DNA of 64,000 nucleotides from a virus. Numbering within the stretch: position 1 is the first letter of the stretch; each line of letters starts with the position of its first letter. Position numbers and translations under genes: made by a program. The stretch lies in the IMG/VR virus record IMGVR_UViG_3300032116_000025. One strand, written 5' to 3'. Positions 13,730-46,115 of this stretch are shown one piece after another. A model generated the notes under the pieces. It was given only the letters and a program-made list of their open reading frames with translations. It was not told where the DNA came from and made no database searches.

Positions 13730-14088
13730 TGGCCCCTCCCAGCCGCCAGCATTGCTTGGCGCAACTTCTCAGGGTTGTTTCGTAGATCCTCAACCTCGTC
13801 TGAAAGCCGTTGCTCAAACTTGTCTTGAAGCTCTTGGTACTTGGAGCGGATGTCCGTCAGCTCCTTTTCCAGGCGCTCTTTCTCGGCCTGAAGCTCGCGG
13901 GCCCGAGTCTGCGCCTCCATTAGAGCGCGGTCGTCTGCTTCGCGAAGAGGGTCGACTACCGTGACGCCCTTGAAGCGATCATGAACTAGTACGGATACCG
14001 CGACGAGGAGCAGCAGAGGGGACAGTAGGACCACCCACCAGTTTTCTTTGAGCCAGGGGTATCCTGTCATTCGCCACCAACGCTTCAT
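13726..14088 (-). CDS. Rz/i-spanin-like protein
   Basis: Single N-terminal TM helix, then a long coiled coil; near a holin-like gene. Confidence 0.5.
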   Translation of the reverse strand: MKRWWRMTGYPWLKENWWVVLLSPLLLLVAVSVLVHDRFKGVTVVDPLREADDRALMEAQTRARELQAEKERLEKELTDIRSKYQELQDKFEQRLSDEVEDLRNNPEKLRQAMLAAGRGQ

Positions 14089-14717
14089 ACGGCTACCCGA
14101 GATGCTGGAACAAGCGTGGTTCTCTCAAACCCGGTTACAGGCGCAAGCACCGTGTCTCCGCCTCTGGCCGCGCCCGGCCGCCCGGGAACAGTGGCTCCTG
14201 CGGAAGGCTGAATCCCTGAGCTGCTAACAGCACGCCGCGCCTTAATCGGGCTCACTGCCGTCCCAGCCATAGCAGGAGGCTGCGGTGCAGCTTGCGCAAG
14301 CGCGCGAGGAGTCATCTCTACCGTTGCCGGGCTGGCAGTGACACTCTTGATGTACTCCGGCGTGTAGCGGTGCTCGCCCCCCATATAACCCTCGTGGGTC
14401 TTGAGGGGCTTACTCATGTCGTACTTTACCGGCGTAGACTCAAACCGGTTAACGAGGTCCGACTTAGGGCCTGCCCACGCTCGCTCTGCGCTGCGTGCAC
14501 CCCGGGCAGACTCCGCTACGTTTAAGGTGGCCTTTCGGGCAGCAATGGGAGTGCTCGTGGCCCCGCCAGCCGCTAGCTCCCGCACACCCTGAAGTACCGT
14601 TGGATGCACGCGGGCGCCCTGCGCAGCTCTACTCTCAAGGACAGCAAGAGTCCGCGCTGCGCTGACCGCGTGTTTTTCTAGCTCATCAACAAAAGAGCTA
14701 AAAACAACGCGGTTCAT
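14085..14717 (-). CDS. Hypothetical protein with N-terminal FVDELEKHA motif
   Basis: 210 aa, coupled on both sides; Ala/Arg-rich. Confidence 0.75.
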   Translation of the reverse strand: MNRVVFSSFVDELEKHAVSAARTLAVLESRAAQGARVHPTVLQGVRELAAGGATSTPIAARKATLNVAESARGARSAERAWAGPKSDLVNRFESTPVKYDMSKPLKTHEGYMGGEHRYTPEYIKSVTASPATVEMTPRALAQAAPQPPAMAGTAVSPIKARRAVSSSGIQPSAGATVPGRPGAARGGDTVLAPVTGFERTTLVPASRVAV

Positions 14718-15145: not shown

Positions 15146-17665
15146 TCAGTGGTTTCGAGGACCCGGATCAGTATAGTTGATCCGAATGCCGTAAAAGACA
15201 TCTGTGTTGTGCGGATTAGGGGAGTCGTCTCCAGCAAACACGGTGATGGTGTACGCGTAGTTTTCAAAATCTAGCGACACAGGGGACCCGGGGGTTAGCG
15301 GGTACCAGTTAAGCACGGCCGATCCGCCGTCATCCCCGTTACCCAGTCCCGTGGACCCGCCAGCTAGTGTACTTTGGTCAAAACTAAACCTGAAGCGGTT
15401 GCCAGATGATCGCGAAGCTCCAGGACTAACGCTAAACTCGATGCTAGTAACAACGCACCCGGACCTAAGGATTCCGGATAGGTCTAGCCAAGCTGTGGCG
15501 TTGTCAACTTGAGAAATGATGGCACCAAAGTAAAGCCACTCAATCTCTGGATCTGACAAATTGGTAGTGATCGTGCTTCCGTTAAACTTGGAGGCCGACA
15601 CATAAGCTGTTCTAATTGGGAGCGGAGCCGGATACACAAAGTCGCTCGACGACACGTTTCCGGCAGTAACCGTTGATGTGGTTAGCCCGTTACCAACGGA
15701 CATTGACGTCGCTGACGAGTAACCGGTATTCCCGAGTCCGTCGCTAATAGTGCTGCTAGACGCTGCAACCGTGTTTTGGTTGCTTGCAAACGTTACAGTT
15801 ACTCCAGACGAGTTTAGGACTCCGGTCTGAGAGCCACTGTCTGCGGTAAAGTCTAGCGGCGTCTGCCGAGTATACTGCCCAAACGGACTAGACGAGCGGA
15901 TGTTGCCTTTAGTGTAAAGGTACCCGTCTCGCGTTAGCGCCCAAGGCACGTCAAGGGTGAGCGGGCCGGTTGCCAATACCGTCCGCGATCTTGTTCCGAC
16001 AAGATCGCCGGCTACAGCAACAACCGATTGCTGCCCCGGAACGTAGTCAAGCTTGCTCGGAAACAAAGCGGTGTTTGCTACGATTCCAGCAGGAGGGACA
16101 GCGTACCCTGCGGGAACTGAGTCTACCGCTACTGGGGCTGAGCGACCTCCAAACGTAGATCGCGCAATAAAGCGAAACTGAAACGTTCCAGCAGTGGGTA
16201 GCTCTCCAACCCCAAGAGCAGACCCGTCCGGTCGCACAAGCGTCATCTCATCCGGGTTGGTAACTACCGGATCGATGTTTACCGAGCTGAGTAAGAAGTA
16301 CTCTAGAAAGTGTGGTCCGGGGCTTGCGATTTGAACAAGCGTAAATCCAGGCTGAACCGTGTCTGCCCAAGCGCCGTGAGCTAGCCCAGCCGGAGGGGGC
16401 GGAGTTCCATCCGACGTGTGAAGGATGACGCGCCCAACCGGAGCAGCAAAGGTACCGTCAATAGAGCCCGTTACCCCAAGAGAGGCGTCTCGGATTGGGC
16501 TTCGAGTCTCAAGCCCCGAGAACGCGGACGCAAAACCGCCCTCGTCAGTAACTAGTACACCAACCTCGTGTACACCAAAGGGGGCGCCTTCTTCTTTGTT
16601 TAGAACAACGCTTGCTAGGCTTCCCTCCTTTCGCTGGATCTCAAGTCCAATACTCGAAGGAATGGCGTCTAGGTTGAAAACTGACTTCAGCCTTCCAGTC
16701 GTCGTAAATCGAGTCCGCGATTCTACGAAGCCGTCTGGGCGACGGTAAGAGAAGCTAAGGGCTGACTCCGGCCCGGTCCCAAGCAAGCCATCAATGTCGC
16801 GACCTACCAGCGATAGAATCGTGGTTGACTCAAGTTGGGTGGAGGAGAGCGCAAGCGCCGCCTTCCGGCTCGCGTTATCCTTTGTGGCGGAAGACATGGC
16901 ATGCGCGATGAAAAACCGCGCGCTACCCGTCTCGTTTACTGGAAACGACGGTGCAGTCCCGTCTAGCCGACGAACAAGAAAGTCTGTAGTGGCGGGGCCT
17001 AGATTGTAGAGGCGGTACAGGCCATCACTAGTGGCAGACCCCGTGATCTCTACAAAGTCCTGGGCGTCAAACGCTACATCTGTGTTTGTGCCATCGTGGA
17101 CGTTAGCCGGGAAGCGAACAACGTCGCCGCCGATAGCTGCCGGGTTTAGGAACACGGACTCCACGGTGGACATCGTGGTGTAAGCAACCGACGGGCTTAC
17201 GTTCTGGCGGGAGAGCATCCCGTACGCGGGGTCTACGGCGCCACGGAAATCAAATCCACCGCTGGCCGTGGTGTCGGCCAAGGCGTCCGCGCGGAAGTGC
17301 GCGTTGGCTGGATCATCAGCGTACTGCGTAGCTAGGGCAGATACGGTCTCTACCGCTCCAGCGTTTTTTGTGATCTGCCGCCCACCGCCCGCCGGACCTA
17401 CGGTCCCGTTGTTATACGCAGCGTCTAGGCCACCGACTTCAAACGACGCGATGCGGGAGTTGAGGTCGTCCGTGTTCAGGGCAAGCGCGTAATGCGTGCG
17501 GTTCGCGATTGCTGCCGTGAGCTGCTCGCCAAACTGAATGCCGCGGTTTCCCGAGTACGTGCCGGGTGGGGGGCTTAGAGAGATAGGAACCTGGGGACCA
17601 AAAGCTCCCGGGGTGGGGATCAGTACGTTATCCCCAAACATCTCTTCTTTTGTCTTGTACGCCAT
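15146..17665 (-). CDS. Tail fibre / receptor-binding-like protein
   Basis: 839 aa, Ser/Thr/Gly beta-rich, distal to the baseplate genes. Confidence 0.55.
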   Translation of the reverse strand: MAYKTKEEMFGDNVLIPTPGAFGPQVPISLSPPPGTYSGNRGIQFGEQLTAAIANRTHYALALNTDDLNSRIASFEVGGLDAAYNNGTVGPAGGGRQITKNAGAVETVSALATQYADDPANAHFRADALADTTASGGFDFRGAVDPAYGMLSRQNVSPSVAYTTMSTVESVFLNPAAIGGDVVRFPANVHDGTNTDVAFDAQDFVEITGSATSDGLYRLYNLGPATTDFLVRRLDGTAPSFPVNETGSARFFIAHAMSSATKDNASRKAALALSSTQLESTTILSLVGRDIDGLLGTGPESALSFSYRRPDGFVESRTRFTTTGRLKSVFNLDAIPSSIGLEIQRKEGSLASVVLNKEEGAPFGVHEVGVLVTDEGGFASAFSGLETRSPIRDASLGVTGSIDGTFAAPVGRVILHTSDGTPPPPAGLAHGAWADTVQPGFTLVQIASPGPHFLEYFLLSSVNIDPVVTNPDEMTLVRPDGSALGVGELPTAGTFQFRFIARSTFGGRSAPVAVDSVPAGYAVPPAGIVANTALFPSKLDYVPGQQSVVAVAGDLVGTRSRTVLATGPLTLDVPWALTRDGYLYTKGNIRSSSPFGQYTRQTPLDFTADSGSQTGVLNSSGVTVTFASNQNTVAASSSTISDGLGNTGYSSATSMSVGNGLTTSTVTAGNVSSSDFVYPAPLPIRTAYVSASKFNGSTITTNLSDPEIEWLYFGAIISQVDNATAWLDLSGILRSGCVVTSIEFSVSPGASRSSGNRFRFSFDQSTLAGGSTGLGNGDDGGSAVLNWYPLTPGSPVSLDFENYAYTITVFAGDDSPNPHNTDVFYGIRINYTDPGPRNH

Positions 17666-17679
17666 GTTCTATCTCCAGA

Positions 17680-18345
17680 TCAGAAACGCCACTCCCAGCG
17701 AACCTCGATCGAGAACACGCCGGTCTTTTGAATTGAGTCAAACGTGTCGTACGCAATCATGTGGCCCGTGGGGCCCGGGTAAGCACCTGCTCCGCCGTTG
17801 GGCAGCGTTGGGTCTGCCGAACTCTTATACAGGCCAATCTCTGAGAGCGGAACAGAGGTAAACCCGCCGAAGTTAATGTCGGTCTCGCTAAACACCGCGA
17901 TAAACTTTGTCCGCGTTACCGCGTCAAACGTTCCGGGCGTAGAGATCTGACGCATCCAAAGCGGCGTGGGTCCGCCATAATCAACTACGGCTGCCGGACG
18001 CTCTAATCGAGCTACCGTGACGTCAGTATCTGTCTGAGCTTGGTGGGGCGCGCCAGCGTACTCGTACCCGCCCGGGTACAGGTTAGCGTACGGAGCTAGG
18101 AAGGCGTTGGGAGAAATCTGCCTAGTTCCTCCAAGACCAAACCCAACGTACCGAACTACGGTGTCTTGCGTCCGCTCGATAAACGCACCCGGACCCAGCA
18201 CCTTTGGCGTGATGACCTCCGCCAGAAACTGACGACCCGTGTTTACTACGATGTTATGCGAGCGGTGGTGTCGCTTACGCTTACCGCGCTCCATAAGGTC
18301 GATCTCTAGGTTAAATCGAACCTCTACGTCTTCGATAAACTTCAT
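17680..18345 (-). CDS. Baseplate / tail-fibre attachment protein
   Basis: HNIVVNTGRQFLAE, LSEIGLY and C-terminal EVRWEWRF, typical of myovirus baseplate-associated proteins. Confidence 0.6.
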   Translation of the reverse strand: MKFIEDVEVRFNLEIDLMERGKRKRHHRSHNIVVNTGRQFLAEVITPKVLGPGAFIERTQDTVVRYVGFGLGGTRQISPNAFLAPYANLYPGGYEYAGAPHQAQTDTDVTVARLERPAAVVDYGGPTPLWMRQISTPGTFDAVTRTKFIAVFSETDINFGGFTSVPLSEIGLYKSSADPTLPNGGAGAYPGPTGHMIAYDTFDSIQKTGVFSIEVRWEWRF

Positions 18346-22589: not shown

Positions 22590-22907
22590 ATGGCCGTGTT
22601 TAGACCACTACCGGTTGGTTTGGCAAGGAAACTGATCGAGGGCATCCAAGATGAGTTGACGCCGCTGGCTGAAAGCCGGGCGGGAATGATTAAGTCTCGT
22701 CCATGCCCCAGGTGCAAAAACGCGATGCACCCGTTTCTAAACAGCCAGCACGCGTTCTCTCCAAACGATCCCCTTCCGCGCTTGCACGCAAGGTGCACGG
22801 AGTGCGGGCTAGAGTGGGACCCGGTGTCTAACCTCATCTTAAACACCGGGGACCCGTCAAAGGTTACCGATCCGGTGCCCATTATCAGGCCGCGTGACCC
22901 AGCATAG
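22590..22907 (+). CDS. Small zinc-ribbon protein, antisense to the structural operon
   Basis: CPRC...CTEC; extended -10 TGCTAGGAT 6 nt before the ATG. Confidence 0.65.
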   Translation: MAVFRPLPVGLARKLIEGIQDELTPLAESRAGMIKSRPCPRCKNAMHPFLNSQHAFSPNDPLPRLHARCTECGLEWDPVSNLILNTGDPSKVTDPVPIIRPRDPA

Positions 22908-23532
22908 ATGCGGTTGCGATGTCACCGAGAATCCCAGCGGGAACGGTTGCGTAAGTGCCAAACGCTTTTAGCAGCCGGCTCTTAGCCGCAGAGACCTCGC
23001 TCTCAGTAGCCCCGGCCGCCCTAAGTTTGTTAATTGCCTTTGCGGAAGCCCACCCCTCAGCGCCCAAGATTGGCGTAGTAGAGGCCAGGGCAATTACGGC
23101 CCCGATGGTTCTGTGAGACGGTGATGATCCCATCATTCCTAAGACCGTCCCGCCTACCGCTCCGACGGTAGCAACGCCCCGAAGACCCGAACTTTGCAGC
23201 AACTTACCAAACCCACTGCGGTCAATCTCCGCGTGGCCTAGCTCATGGGCTAGGATCCCAGGGTCCTCCAAGGATCGAACCGACACGTAGGGCTTGCCCC
23301 CGGTGTTACTGTAGTAAGGGCCTTCTCCGCTACCTTCATGCTGGTATCGAACCTCTACGGCTTCTCCCTTAAGCAGCGCCTTACGCAACTCAGCGCGCCG
23401 CGCGTTGTCGGGATCAAGTCGCAGAACCCCAGGGGTCATTGCCTTTCGAAGCAGCTGTGAGGCTAGCGTTCCAAGGACAGACTCCTTGGACATCTCGTCA
23501 GAAAACGAGCTTAGTGCTCGGCTGGAGATCAT
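22885..23532 (-). CDS. Membrane-associated zinc metallopeptidase-like protein with FSDEMSKES leader
   Basis: ILAHELGH, two hydrophobic helices, then AEGWAS (third zinc ligand Glu). Confidence 0.7.
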   Translation of the reverse strand: MISSRALSSFSDEMSKESVLGTLASQLLRKAMTPGVLRLDPDNARRAELRKALLKGEAVEVRYQHEGSGEGPYYSNTGGKPYVSVRSLEDPGILAHELGHAEIDRSGFGKLLQSSGLRGVATVGAVGGTVLGMMGSSPSHRTIGAVIALASTTPILGAEGWASAKAINKLRAAGATESEVSAAKSRLLKAFGTYATVPAGILGDIATASMLGHAA

Positions 23533-32454: not shown

Positions 32455-34386
32455 TCATACGCCGTACTCAGACCGACTCACGGTGCCCAACGCTTCCTCT
32501 AAGTCAACGTGGTCCAGATCCTTATACTGCTCAGGCTTTGACATCACGTACTTGGGAAGTACCCGGTGAGCAATTCCGGCAGTACCGTGGCCCCTAGCTG
32601 GCCGTAGGTAAGTAGACCCAGGAATGATAGAGTCTGGTCGCCGAATTGCGATCTCTGTCCCTTCAACCTCATAGTCGCGCGATGGCTCTAGGTGCCTAGC
32701 CAGCTCTTCTTGGAACTTTTCCCGACGGTATGCTGCAAGAGCCCCAGTAGCCGCTCGGTTTAACCCGGCGGACTTTGTATACATAGGTTGCCGCGCATAC
32801 TCAGCGCGGGGAGGCTTATCAGCATTTGGAGTCCGGTTCTTTTCCGAGTACAGCGCCCGGGATAGCTGGCTATCCCGATACGGGCTAACCGGATCGTTTT
32901 CCTCTACCTCTCCCTGTTCTTCTCGACGAACCTCTTCAAGCACCCGGTCAGCCAGCGGAGCAAACAGGTGCTTACTGGCCGCAGCCGCCTTTAAGCGTCG
33001 GTGTGCATCATGACGCTCGGGGTTCTGAAACAAGACTACCCGCTTAGTCTTGTCCGACTTTGCGAGGTCTTTTGGCATAATGACGGCCCGGATCTTTTGC
33101 GGATTGAAGTTTACGTCCTTGTACGCGTGCGCAATGAAGTTGGAACACATGACCGTGTTCTTGTCGATCCGCTTGTTTAGCTCAGTGCTCGGCTTTAGCC
33201 CTGCCTTCTCTGCAAGGTAAACCTGGGCAAAGAACGGGAAGTTTTCGTACTTAAACTTGTCGCCCTTAGCCGCAAGCTCTACTGAGCGGCGAACTGCTTC
33301 TTGACGGGTTTTTGTGTCTACCTGTGGACGGACTACAAGAGCGTCGAGCCCTTCGACTGTCTTTGCAAGGGGTCGCGTGTGCAGCTTGTCGTTGAGCATT
33401 TCAACGACCTGCCCCTTGCCAACGTAAATCCCCGTGTGAGCGTGATCCTTGTTGACCGAGTAAGAAAAGGTCCGAAAAACCTTGTCTTTTGCTCGGTCTA
33501 AAAGGCTTCCTTCGGTCAGAGGACGGCCCATCGAAGTTACAACGATGTCGCCGGGCTTAAGCTTCTTGTGGACGTCCGAAAGGTCGGTAGTGATCTTAAA
33601 CCCGCCTACGTCTGCGGCAGACTTCTGGCCTTCTTGCCGTTTAGCCATTTCAAGAAGACGCGTTCCTTTTGCAGCGATTGCGCGCGCCTGCTGCTCGTTC
33701 TGGGGCACAGGCTCGCCCCACGCCTTTGCTGTGAGGGCCAGACGAGTCGGCTCGCCGTTAGGCTTCTTCAAGGGAGGCAGCGGGCTCTGCCCGTAGAAGC
33801 GGCGGGCCCACGAGCCCTTTCGCTTCATGTCCTTCGTCGACATCTCATCGACCGGCTTCTTTACGCCGGGCTTGAGGTCCTTGCTTTCGCCGCTGCGCTC
33901 AAAATGACGACGCCCCGCTTCGGTAAGACCGCCCTCGGGGTTCTTGTGCTTGGCAAGCAGGGCAAGCTTTTGAAACATGGTATTCATCCCAGCCTCTTTG
34001 CGAGCTTCCTGTGCGGCGTCGGTGTTCGCCACAAACTGCTGCCCTTTGCGGGACGCCTCGACCTTCTTTTTGTTGGTGGCCGCCTTCTGCCCCGGGGTGA
34101 GCTTGTCCCATGCCTTCTCGGGCAAGTACCGCCGCATAGTGCCGTCCGGCTTCTCGGCGGGCTTACCGTCTGAGGTCGTCCACTTCTGATCGGTCCACTT
34201 TGCGAGCGACTTCTGCGCGCCCGTGCGCGGGCCCTTGTAGCCACCGCCAGCCGCTTCGTACTTCTGCGCCACGAGCTGCGCCTTACGCGCAGACCACTGG
34301 CCCGGCTTACCGCCGTCTCCAGAAGCCATGACCTGGGACTTGATGCGGTTGCGAAGCTCAGGCTTCGTGTAGTTCTTTTCCGTCAT
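32455..34386 (-). CDS. Multidomain polyprotein-like ORF: DUF5872-like + DUF6321-like + permuted papain-like (YaeF/YiiX) amidase + tail modules
   Basis: GGKPGQWSARKAQL; KHKNPEGGLTEAGR; LKPGDIV...HTGIYVG...CSNFIAHAY; K-x-A motifs at the junctions. Confidence 0.7.
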   Translation of the reverse strand: MTEKNYTKPELRNRIKSQVMASGDGGKPGQWSARKAQLVAQKYEAAGGGYKGPRTGAQKSLAKWTDQKWTTSDGKPAEKPDGTMRRYLPEKAWDKLTPGQKAATNKKKVEASRKGQQFVANTDAAQEARKEAGMNTMFQKLALLAKHKNPEGGLTEAGRRHFERSGESKDLKPGVKKPVDEMSTKDMKRKGSWARRFYGQSPLPPLKKPNGEPTRLALTAKAWGEPVPQNEQQARAIAAKGTRLLEMAKRQEGQKSAADVGGFKITTDLSDVHKKLKPGDIVVTSMGRPLTEGSLLDRAKDKVFRTFSYSVNKDHAHTGIYVGKGQVVEMLNDKLHTRPLAKTVEGLDALVVRPQVDTKTRQEAVRRSVELAAKGDKFKYENFPFFAQVYLAEKAGLKPSTELNKRIDKNTVMCSNFIAHAYKDVNFNPQKIRAVIMPKDLAKSDKTKRVVLFQNPERHDAHRRLKAAAASKHLFAPLADRVLEEVRREEQGEVEENDPVSPYRDSQLSRALYSEKNRTPNADKPPRAEYARQPMYTKSAGLNRAATGALAAYRREKFQEELARHLEPSRDYEVEGTEIAIRRPDSIIPGSTYLRPARGHGTAGIAHRVLPKYVMSKPEQYKDLDHVDLEEALGTVSRSEYGV

Positions 34387-44402: not shown

Positions 44403-45221
44403 CTATTCCTTCTTAAGCACAGGGCCAATGATTCGCTCTACGCGCGTTTTTAGGTCATAGGCTCGGTGCGGCGGGATGCCCATCTTCTTTGCGATCTGCT
44501 GCGGAGTAAGCTGAGAGTCGCCCGCGGCGGGAAGATGAAACTCCGCGTACTGCCGTTCTTCCGGAGACATTTTGCTCTTCATAAGGAGAAATGCGTCCCG
44601 AGGAGACGCTACGTCTAGCTCCTCAGTAAGGTCTGTCCCCATGTGCGTATGCACTTCCGGAGAAAATCCCGTCTTTAGTTCCTTGATCCTCTTGATAGAC
44701 ATTCCTGGCAGCTTTTGCTGAAGCTCCAGAGCCGTGGGCTCTCGCCCGTAAAGATCAACAAACTCGTTTCGAGCGTTAGAAAACTCGCTGTATCGTCCGA
44801 TGTTTTCTTTGCTCATGTAAAGTGCGTTTCTGTTCTGGGCTACAAAGTCAGAAACGCGCTGAAAGTTGTTGTTGATGTGTGTGCTCAGCTGTGTCTTCTT
44901 TGCCGGATCGTAAGTCTGAATGGCTCTTACGGTTGCGTTGCGAAGCTCGTTCTTCATCGAGTCATAGGGGATCGCTCCGCCTAAGCTCTTCATGCGCTTG
45001 TTCGCCTCCCTAGAGATCATTGGATCAAGAGAAGTGAGAAGCGGCTCTAGGTGCTCAGGGGTCCTCCCACCTTCGTGCCACGTACGCCACTGGTCTAGTT
45101 CCTGCCCTCGCCTAGACCGCAGCTCCGCATAGCGCTCCTTGGCTTGACGCTGCCGAGCCTCGGTCATGGCGCCCACGGCGGACGCTGACTCCTTGATGAA
45201 CTCGTCAATCGGCTGATTCAC
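44403..45221 (-). CDS. Phage-encoded sigma-70-family factor
   Basis: Region 2 VRAIQTYDPAKKTQLSTHI, region 3 GREPTALELQQKL, region 4 HTH LTPQQIAKKMGI. Confidence 0.8.
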   Translation of the reverse strand: MNQPIDEFIKESASAVGAMTEARQRQAKERYAELRSRRGQELDQWRTWHEGGRTPEHLEPLLTSLDPMISREANKRMKSLGGAIPYDSMKNELRNATVRAIQTYDPAKKTQLSTHINNNFQRVSDFVAQNRNALYMSKENIGRYSEFSNARNEFVDLYGREPTALELQQKLPGMSIKRIKELKTGFSPEVHTHMGTDLTEELDVASPRDAFLLMKSKMSPEERQYAEFHLPAAGDSQLTPQQIAKKMGIPPHRAYDLKTRVERIIGPVLKKE

Positions 45222-45244: not shown

Positions 45245-45634
45245 CTAGAGCCCGGTGTTCATTGGACCAACGCCAGACAGCCCTTGGGGTTGGGTAGCCG
45301 GTGTGTTCTTGCGTAAGGCGTTCTTTGGAGAAATATCGGGGTTGATTACCCCATCTACAGGCTTTACCGACTTTACGCCCGGAGCCTGAAGCGTCGGCTT
45401 GCCCACGCGAGGAGCAGGCATGGTGCCGGGAACGCCTTTTTGAGACACAAACTTGCCCACGCTTTGAGAGGGGCTTGCTGGCATCTTAAGAGACATCGCG
45501 ATCTTCGCAAAGAAGGGGGCTAGGATGTCCTCCGCAATCTTGTGCTTCCTTTTCTTGTGACGCGCGTTGACCCGCTTTCCGCTCTCGTAAAGGTACTTGA
45601 CAGTCGTTGGCGTCATGATCCTTTCAACGCCCAT
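45245..45634 (-). CDS. Basic low-complexity protein with two K-I-A motifs
   Basis: KHKIA, PFFAKIA; RBS CAGGAG. Confidence 0.65.
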   Translation of the reverse strand: MGVERIMTPTTVKYLYESGKRVNARHKKRKHKIAEDILAPFFAKIAMSLKMPASPSQSVGKFVSQKGVPGTMPAPRVGKPTLQAPGVKSVKPVDGVINPDISPKNALRKNTPATQPQGLSGVGPMNTGL

Positions 45635-46115
45635 TTGAGTGCTCCTGAACGTAGCGTTTTACTGTTTTTTGATCTTCGCCGCGATCAATCATTTCGCGAA
45701 TTGCCTGGATAGCAGATCCGCTAAGTGCTCCACGGGTAACGTTCTTCCCTAGGTCTCCGCCGGTAAGCTGCTTTGTGACTCCCTGCATCGCGCCAGCACG
45801 ACCGCCTTGGATTAAGCCCTTAACCCCCTCGCCTGCGGCAGCCACAAGAGGGTAGGCAACCGTCATTACCCCGGTGGTTTTTGCGTAACGACCAAGCGTT
45901 TTCTTCTTGGATAGCCGCTTAGCTGCGTCCAGAGCTTCATCGTCGCTGATCTCCTCAGCAGCAAGCTTTAGCTCTTCAAAAAACGCAGACCAAGCCGGTC
46001 CTAAGCTGGCTTTCTTTGCGTGACTCATGTGTCGCCTTCCCGCGCCGTGCATACGGTCGATAAGCGTCTGGGCAGAAATGCTTGGGCTTCCGGACCGCGG
46101 TACAAACGTCGGCAT
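45624..46115 (-). CDS. Hypothetical protein with AFFEELKLA motif and hydrophobic Gly/Ala helices
   Basis: HAKKAS...WSAFFEELKLAA. Confidence 0.7.
   Translation of the reverse strand: MPTFVPRSGSPSISAQTLIDRMHGAGRRHMSHAKKASLGPAWSAFFEELKLAAEEISDDEALDAAKRLSKKKTLGRYAKTTGVMTVAYPLVAAAGEGVKGLIQGGRAGAMQGVTKQLTGGDLGKNVTRGALSGSAIQAIREMIDRGEDQKTVKRYVQEHSNGR

Follow-up and report, generated by a model that had tools for sequence, protein, structure and literature searches.

The minus-strand open reading frame (ORF) at 32455-34386 of the window, the whole 64,000-nucleotide stretch of virus record IMGVR_UViG_3300032116_000025 that we analysed, probably encodes a head-cargo polyprotein, a chain predicted to be cut after K-x-A by the head protease of the phage. 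The modularity of the protein, the shuffling of its modules at the motif, the enrichment of the motif in head genes, the fold of the protease, and the change of tag with protease family together lead to this reading. The ORF specifies 643 amino acids (aa; 71.9 kDa), in line with the size of about 72 kDa that a first-pass annotation of the locus had given, and lies inside a long block of structural-type genes. It shares strand and block with large structural-type genes, its immediate neighbours belong to no named family, and the slot that it occupies is conserved in relatives, with variable content. An assembly chimera was ruled out: a contig of another run covers the joints between modules A and B and between B and C with zero differences, and the relative P0002 is 77% identical across 98% of the length, so the 643-aa architecture is real.

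The source record is a single contig of 160,725 bp whose genes include a multi-subunit RNA polymerase, a large terminase, a major capsid protein, and a 1477-aa protein headed by an InPase. The major capsid protein belongs to phrog_2522 and has phage G gp27 as its nearest solved relative, and a large myovirus-like phage related to phages G and Arash is the best explanation of the genome. Runs containing DNA of this phage were freshwater and 'fungus' metagenomes, and no prophage was found in GTDB genomes. One metatranscriptome held short, low-depth contigs on the 643-aa gene, by which its transcription is not demonstrated; a search for a sigma-70 promoter at the gene gave no match, and terminators were at chance level.

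Modules of the 643-aa protein

The chain runs through five modules, A to E, with a K-x-A site at each joint (Table 1).

Table 1. Features of the modular gene and of the predicted head protease; positions refer to the window except in the last row, and residue numbers to the 643-aa protein.
Feature	Position	Strand	Remarks
Modular ORF, 643 aa	32455..34386	-	Variable slot flanked by conserved 320-aa and 305-aa genes, virion block
Module A, DUF5872-like basic domain	34000..34374	-	Residues 5-129; piece 1-132 has pI 10.1
KEA 130-132, end of module A	33991..33999	-	Weak site; [KR]-x-A native in 53/62 stand-alone DUF5872
KLA 140-142, A/B junction	33961..33969	-	K-x-A in 12/14 rows of its own module B clade
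Module B, DUF6321 basic domain	33646..33951	-	Residues 146-247; piece 143-257 has pI 10.3
KSA 255-257, B/C junction	33616..33624	-	K-x-[AS] after B regardless of the next module
Module C, permuted papain-like (C92/YaeF-YiiX-like)	33022..33603	-	His317 at 33436-33438, Cys414 at 33145-33147
KAA 466-468, C/D junction	32983..32991	-	K-L/V/T-S in the five closest relatives
Module D, no family	32776..32982	-	Residues 469-537; also follows B directly, or an unrelated module
KSA 538-540, D/E junction	32767..32775	-	Invariant in six relatives; elsewhere D is the protein end here
Module E, no family	32458..32766	-	Residues 541-643; only ever after D
Predicted prohead protease, 589 aa	148359-150128 of the genome, outside the window		N-terminal half with predicted gp21/assemblin fold

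Both basic domains named in the first-pass annotation were recovered by Pfam, DUF6321 at residues 147-223 (E 4e-24, above the cut-off) and DUF5872 at residues 9-115 (E 2e-4, below the cut-off; ESM Atlas 0.94), and the positions that it had assigned to five K-x-A motifs (KEA, KLA, KSA, KAA, KSA) were all exact. A fold search with modules A and B returned nothing usable (best Z 6.2, to helical bundles), and the model of A was poor. For modules D and E together, ESM Atlas gave no usable match and a metagenome scan found none. Module D had been described as acidic, which holds for residues 484-503 only, as the charges of the whole segment nearly cancel (12 K+R, 13 D+E).

Module C had been read beforehand as a papain-like amidase with His before Cys, and this was borne out. 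His317 and Cys414 are invariant in 63 relatives, with the His N-terminal to the Cys, and a profile of the module matched 3KW0, a permuted papain-like peptidase (E 1.3e-6). Peptidase_C92 of Pfam was matched by 31 of the 63 family members, with relatives down to E 1e-10; the module C query alone scored 17.9 bits, below the gathering cut-off of 27 (E 0.0035), and a PDB sequence search with the amidase alone gave no match. The module resembles the Peptidase_C92, 3KW0, and LRAT-HRASLS enzymes in its order of invariant catalytic-type residues and in the profile match, but is only distantly related to them. Although module C is a papain-fold hydrolase, relatives without it still have K-x-[AS] joints.

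Junction motifs and the exchange of modules

The total number of K-x-A motifs in the 643-aa protein is that expected from shuffling (7 against a mean of 7.4, P=0.64), as in the whole proteome, where there is no excess (241 vs 222 expected), so information lies only in where they stand. The junction windows were set from the module limits of homologues, and each of the four contains the motif; the probability of this was 0.00035 when the whole protein was shuffled and about 0.01 when shuffling was local. Chance occurrence in the linkers of a Lys/Ala-rich protein would account for the total and for any one window, since each has an 18-46% probability of holding K-x-A under local shuffling. However, K-x-A lies at most 30 residues upstream of the domain in 71 of 108 amidase relatives (66%), including 24 of the 38 in which the amidase is internal, compared with 45 of 539 windows within the domain (8%); these relatives are mostly cluster representatives at <50% identity, and because they are akin the Fisher P of 2e-36 overstates their independence. 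With the enrichment in head genes and the conservation at shuffle points described below, a chance origin of the joints is largely refuted, and we give it hardly any weight.

The proposal that every junction is marked by K-x-A thus stands as regards non-random placement, but needs amending at two sites. Stand-alone DUF5872 proteins of unrelated phages carry [KR]-x-A at the position of KEA130 in 53 of 62 cases, and because the motif is native to the DUF5872 end, KEA130 is weak, non-independent evidence and KLA140 is the informative A/B site. At the C/D site, close relatives have K-L/V/T-S, so the motif is more properly K-x-[AS]. As had been remarked, K-x-A also occurs inside the Lys-rich domains: KPA75 and KAA101 both lie within DUF5872, at positions in its conserved core, and are presumably protected by its fold.

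We found different sets of modules in the same slot. Besides the A-B-C-D-E order of the 643-aa ORF, relatives have A-B-D, C-D-E, leader-A-B-D', A-X-Y-B-SNF2 helicase, or X-D-Y. The joints of these slot variants carry K-x-[AS], some A-B linkers are as short as one K-[IV]-A, and the amidase-first relatives begin at a K-x-[AS] equivalent to KSA 255-257. Relatives therefore gain, lose, and exchange modules at K-x-[AS], in answer to the check on domain shuffling proposed with the first-pass annotation. That these domains exist as separate small proteins, as had been noted, was also supported: we detected 62 stand-alone DUF5872 proteins of at most 140 aa, including forms of 128-140 aa, and many stand-alone amidases of about 200 aa. 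DUF5872 and DUF6321 are present in small cultured marine phages, T7-like podoviruses included, and exist alone in bacteria too. The leader of stand-alone cargo has the consensus A-F-x-D-E-L-x-K-[IL]-A, in which the first A is variable; DUF5872 stands right at the N-terminus of the 643-aa ORF, and relatives P0012, P0017, P0243, and P0244 begin with K-x-A leaders. In a tree of module B, K-x-A is present in 12 of the 14 rows of the clade containing the 643-aa protein (support 99/99); this describes the clade and is no test of co-evolution, because module B kin share labels. A search of five complete related genomes for DUF6321 and the amidase, run without a positive control, found no match.

Side by side with the phage proteins, we observed two DUF6321-DUF5872 fusions with Lys/Ala-rich linkers (P0258 and P0267) on 7-Mb planctomycete chromosomes. 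DUF5872 also occurs in fungi, and in bacteria with Rho-N, a pairing that hints at nucleic-acid binding.

The motifs could instead be remnants of leaders from recent fusions that are now out of use, or the downstream part could be made from an internal start. The A/B linker resembles a former N-terminus (Met134/Met137, then F-Q-K-L-A), F-x-E-E-V-K-L-A is kept at this linker in relatives, and the codons of K-E-A-G (33988-34004, minus strand) spell AAAGAGG, a Shine-Dalgarno-like sequence five bases 5' of Met134. The other three joints, however, have no following Met, nor does the A/B linker of P0002 contain one, and K-x-[AS] is retained while linker length and sequence vary; we regard such disused leaders as improbable.

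It is also conceivable that the sites are cut but that A, B, D, and E serve assembly or targeting in the core and then exit, leaving the amidase (or the helicase in relatives) as the sole cargo. In keeping with this, the propeptides of SPN3US (111-254 residues) are largely cleared after cleavage at several motifs, the core proteins of T4 are broken into fragments and removed, and D and E are without known family. Yet A and B are conserved domains found alone in T7-like podoviruses and bacteria, relatives consisting only of A-B-D exist, and the T4 head retains basic proteins of 8-20 kDa, so we think it rather unlikely that most of the chain is discarded.

The predicted head protease and the tags it may recognise

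K-[ILVT]-A occurs 35 times in the phage's own head block vs 6.2 expected, and is at chance in the other blocks (replication 7 vs 7.0, early 13 vs 11.9, tail 2 vs 3.3). Two unannotated minus-strand genes, at 16348-17859 and 158569-160644 of the genome, encode proteins with 9 vs 2.3 and 10 vs 3.2 K-x-A; judged by these counts, both are probably head components.

The model of the predicted prohead protease had T4 gp21 (5JBL; Z 8.6, rmsd 2.8, 132 aligned) and varicella-zoster virus (VZV) protease (1VZV; Z 8.5, rmsd 3.1, 118 aligned) as its best folds, at scores that are modest and moderately above background. Herpes proteases also ranked top in a Foldseek search with the model, none of them with E <0.001, and a PDB sequence search with the protease alone gave no match. 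In the protease family, His119/His120 and Ser177 are invariant, and K-x-[AS] brackets the protease domain, standing before it in 86 of 89 members and after it in 79 of 89. Homologues at 24-28% identity are phage G gp19, annotated as a head maturation protease, and Arash gp222; K-x-A is in excess both in gp19 itself (8 vs 2.5 expected) and in several head genes of Arash. A K-x-A polyprotein from the same slot (P0011) and an orthologue of the protease (P0236) lie on one contig. The literature searched yielded no cleavage data for the gp19-type protease family, and the accessible part of the Arash supplement (PMC10585845) held no peptide list and gave coverage values too coarse to reveal trimming. 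Inteins were seen in many of the prohead protease orthologues (P0127, P0131, P0144, and others).

The motif could, on the other hand, end an amphipathic F-x-x-E-L-x-K-I-A helix that binds scaffold or shell, the chain being packaged whole as a polyvalent protein. The leader shows a helical F/E/L pattern, and in the AlphaFold model the motifs at A/B and B/C fall within helices, albeit with pLDDT <50 at A/B. The major capsid protein has K-[ILMV]-A in 37 of 38 distinct relatives, in a segment apparently retained at the N-terminus of phage G gp27 (PDB chain of 280/282 residues), so K-x-A can be structural. Some polyvalent proteins, such as the N4 virion RNA polymerase, are packaged unprocessed according to the accessible text of PMC5512222. 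However, the F..EL helix is missing from most internal joints, where only K-x-[AS] is left, down to the single K-[IV]-A at A/B, the bracketing of the protease domain resembles autoprocessing, and the tags of two other lineages fit known protease rules. A docking role is thus unlikely, though these helices keep it in consideration, and we continue with cutting as the preferred reading.

DUF6321 occurs under those other tags as well. In three T4-like cyanophages it begins directly after V-x-E, near the rule of T4 gp21, which cuts after L/I-X-E (PMC9026906). One of these proteins, from S-SCSM1, is annotated 'virion protein', and this phage has a virion proteome, in whose supplement this protein, gp29, was not confirmed by accession. 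In another group of phages, DUF6321 follows an S78 prohead protease in a fusion, and the head cluster of a phage with a phrog_1028 protease contains a DUF6321-DUF5872 chain. Joints and scaffold in such HK97-type phages have the form hydrophobic-x-K-[ASG], found 14 times vs 3.2 expected in that chain and 14 vs 2.4 in the accompanying scaffold; HK97/T5-type proteases cleave after Lys. Hydrophobic-x-K followed by Ala, Ser, or Gly is not enriched in the head block of our phage (14 vs 14.0 expected), and its protease family could not be aligned to the phrog_1028 type. K-A-A and K-S-A fit both Lys codes, so some rows are blurred. We rank this three-way contrast of tag by protease family, drawn from sequence comparison, as the strongest argument for K-x-A as a protease site. 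It may further be that tailed phages draw their small cargo modules (DUF5872, DUF6321, amidases, helicases, and ferritins) from a common pool and string them into true polyproteins whose joints are re-tagged for the head protease of each lineage (V/L/I-x-E, hydrophobic-x-K, or the K-x-A of the phage G/Arash type), an idea we hold tentatively and would put slightly short of even. In P0012, P0013, P0017, and their kin, the start of DUF6321 reads K-x-A-S-E-[SG]-G-A-W-Q-R, similar to the T4-like V-S-E-E-A-W-Q-R; this group possibly received the module from a T4-like donor and re-tagged it.

Known head-processing systems and the proposed route

The gp21 protease of T4 trims leaders that target proteins to the capsid, and it breaks core proteins into numerous pieces (PMC9026906). 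The 643-aa ORF and its relatives recall T4 IPI-III and Alt in small basic proteins that would be head cargo, in short leaders that end in a putative protease motif (in the relatives), in a motif common to scaffold and protease, and in the predicted protease fold. Unlike the T4 internal proteins, which are separate genes with their own leaders, the ORF joins five modules in one chain, its joints are K-x-[AS] rather than L/I-X-E, and its cutting is predicted whereas that of T4 is demonstrated. It would work like T4-type cargo processing and falls outside the T4 type on motif and on modules per chain. The head maturation proteases SPN3US gp245 and phiKZ gp175 cut after Glu (PMC10052503, PMC5694885), and a three-residue motif repeated across many head proteins is common to these systems and ours; K-x-[AS] after the protease domain recalls the C-terminal autoprocessing of gp245. 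Their sites, in contrast, mostly strip propeptides and do not separate enzyme modules; in SPN3US almost every site serves to remove an N-terminal propeptide, and cutting spares 42 head proteins, which counts against a cargo polyprotein, as does the non-independence of the relatives sampled.

By its architecture the ORF qualifies as a polyvalent protein (Iyer et al. 2017, PMC5512222). Such proteins, in the accessible text, string unrelated domains together in varying combinations, lie near virion genes, and draw on the same domain pool, as InPase and SNF2 helicase co-occur with modules of the ORF. That text already makes the polyprotein analogy and ascribes domain release to embedded peptidases, but it describes no head-protease motif per joint, and DUF5872 and DUF6321 were not found in it. 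The view that such a strategy is rarely described in tailed phages therefore has to be softened, since T4 gp21 (PMC9026906) and, as far as the accessible text goes, the polyvalent proteins (PMC5512222) make its principle less unusual. The head modules of phage G and Arash (10.1101/2024.12.16.628780; PMC10585845) have a homologous protease, a related capsid protein, and an excess of K-x-A in the protease and adjacent head genes; no match to the 643-aa polyprotein was found in either phage, and the accessible portions of the two reports give no cleavage motif for their proteases. In the literature searched, which included only a minority of subscription papers, we found neither a phage K-x-A rule nor DUF5872 or DUF6321 in polyproteins.

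Several other genes carry related motifs. In the window, four minus-strand genes (14085-14717, 22885-23532, 45245-45634, and 45624-46115), one of them for an HExxH protein, have leaders or joints of the F-x-x-E-L-x-K-x-[AS] type and are candidate cargo on that basis, and a sigma-factor-like gene in the virion block (44403-45221, minus strand) has an N-terminal K-E-S leader; Arash virions contain their own sigma factor, RNA polymerase subunits, and helicase (PMC10585845). Elsewhere in the genome, all on the minus strand, we detected a second modular protein of 643 aa with six K-x-A sites and a separate permuted papain-like domain that shares 29% identity with module C (138108-140039; L001:8109-10040), the 1477-aa protein with a polyvalent-protein InPase head and 15 K-x-A sites (120923-125356; L004:5924-10357), and a ferritin/rubrerythrin-like domain between K-x-A sites in a gene that adjoins the capsid genes (140052-141434; L001:10053-11435). 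Ferritin was also found in S78-protease fusions with DUF6321.

We propose that the ORF is a variable cargo cassette which, from its position in the virion block, would be expressed late as a single chain and incorporated into the prohead core. There the prohead protease would cut following K-x-A/S, most likely with Lys as P3 and Ala as P1. This assignment is modelled on gp21, in which P3 is hydrophobic and P1 is Glu, and on the herpesvirus assemblins, in which P1 is Ala. Cutting would release pieces of about 14.5, 12.8, 23.8, 8.3, and 11.5 kDa, namely two basic proteins from A and B, a Cys/His hydrolase, and a pair of small peptides. The two basic proteins would probably sit on the packaged DNA, as T4 IPI-III do. 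The Cys/His amidase would probably be ejected to act as an enzyme on a host substrate with an amide or ester bond, which, going by the C92/LRAT group, may be a lipid or lipoprotein. Gene fusion and exchange would occur at the tag because stand-alone cargo genes already carry the (A)F-x-D-E-L-x-K-[IL]-A leader.

If true, this reading would supply a cutting rule for the phage G/Arash prohead protease family, for which none was found in the literature searched, and would predict proteins that such large phages bring into the cell. The label 'hypothetical protein' on such ORFs would then conceal several cargo proteins. Because one DUF6321 module occurs under three tags, the idea can be put to the test in cultured phages, and should the shared pool of modules also prove true, the injected proteome would be readable from sequence.
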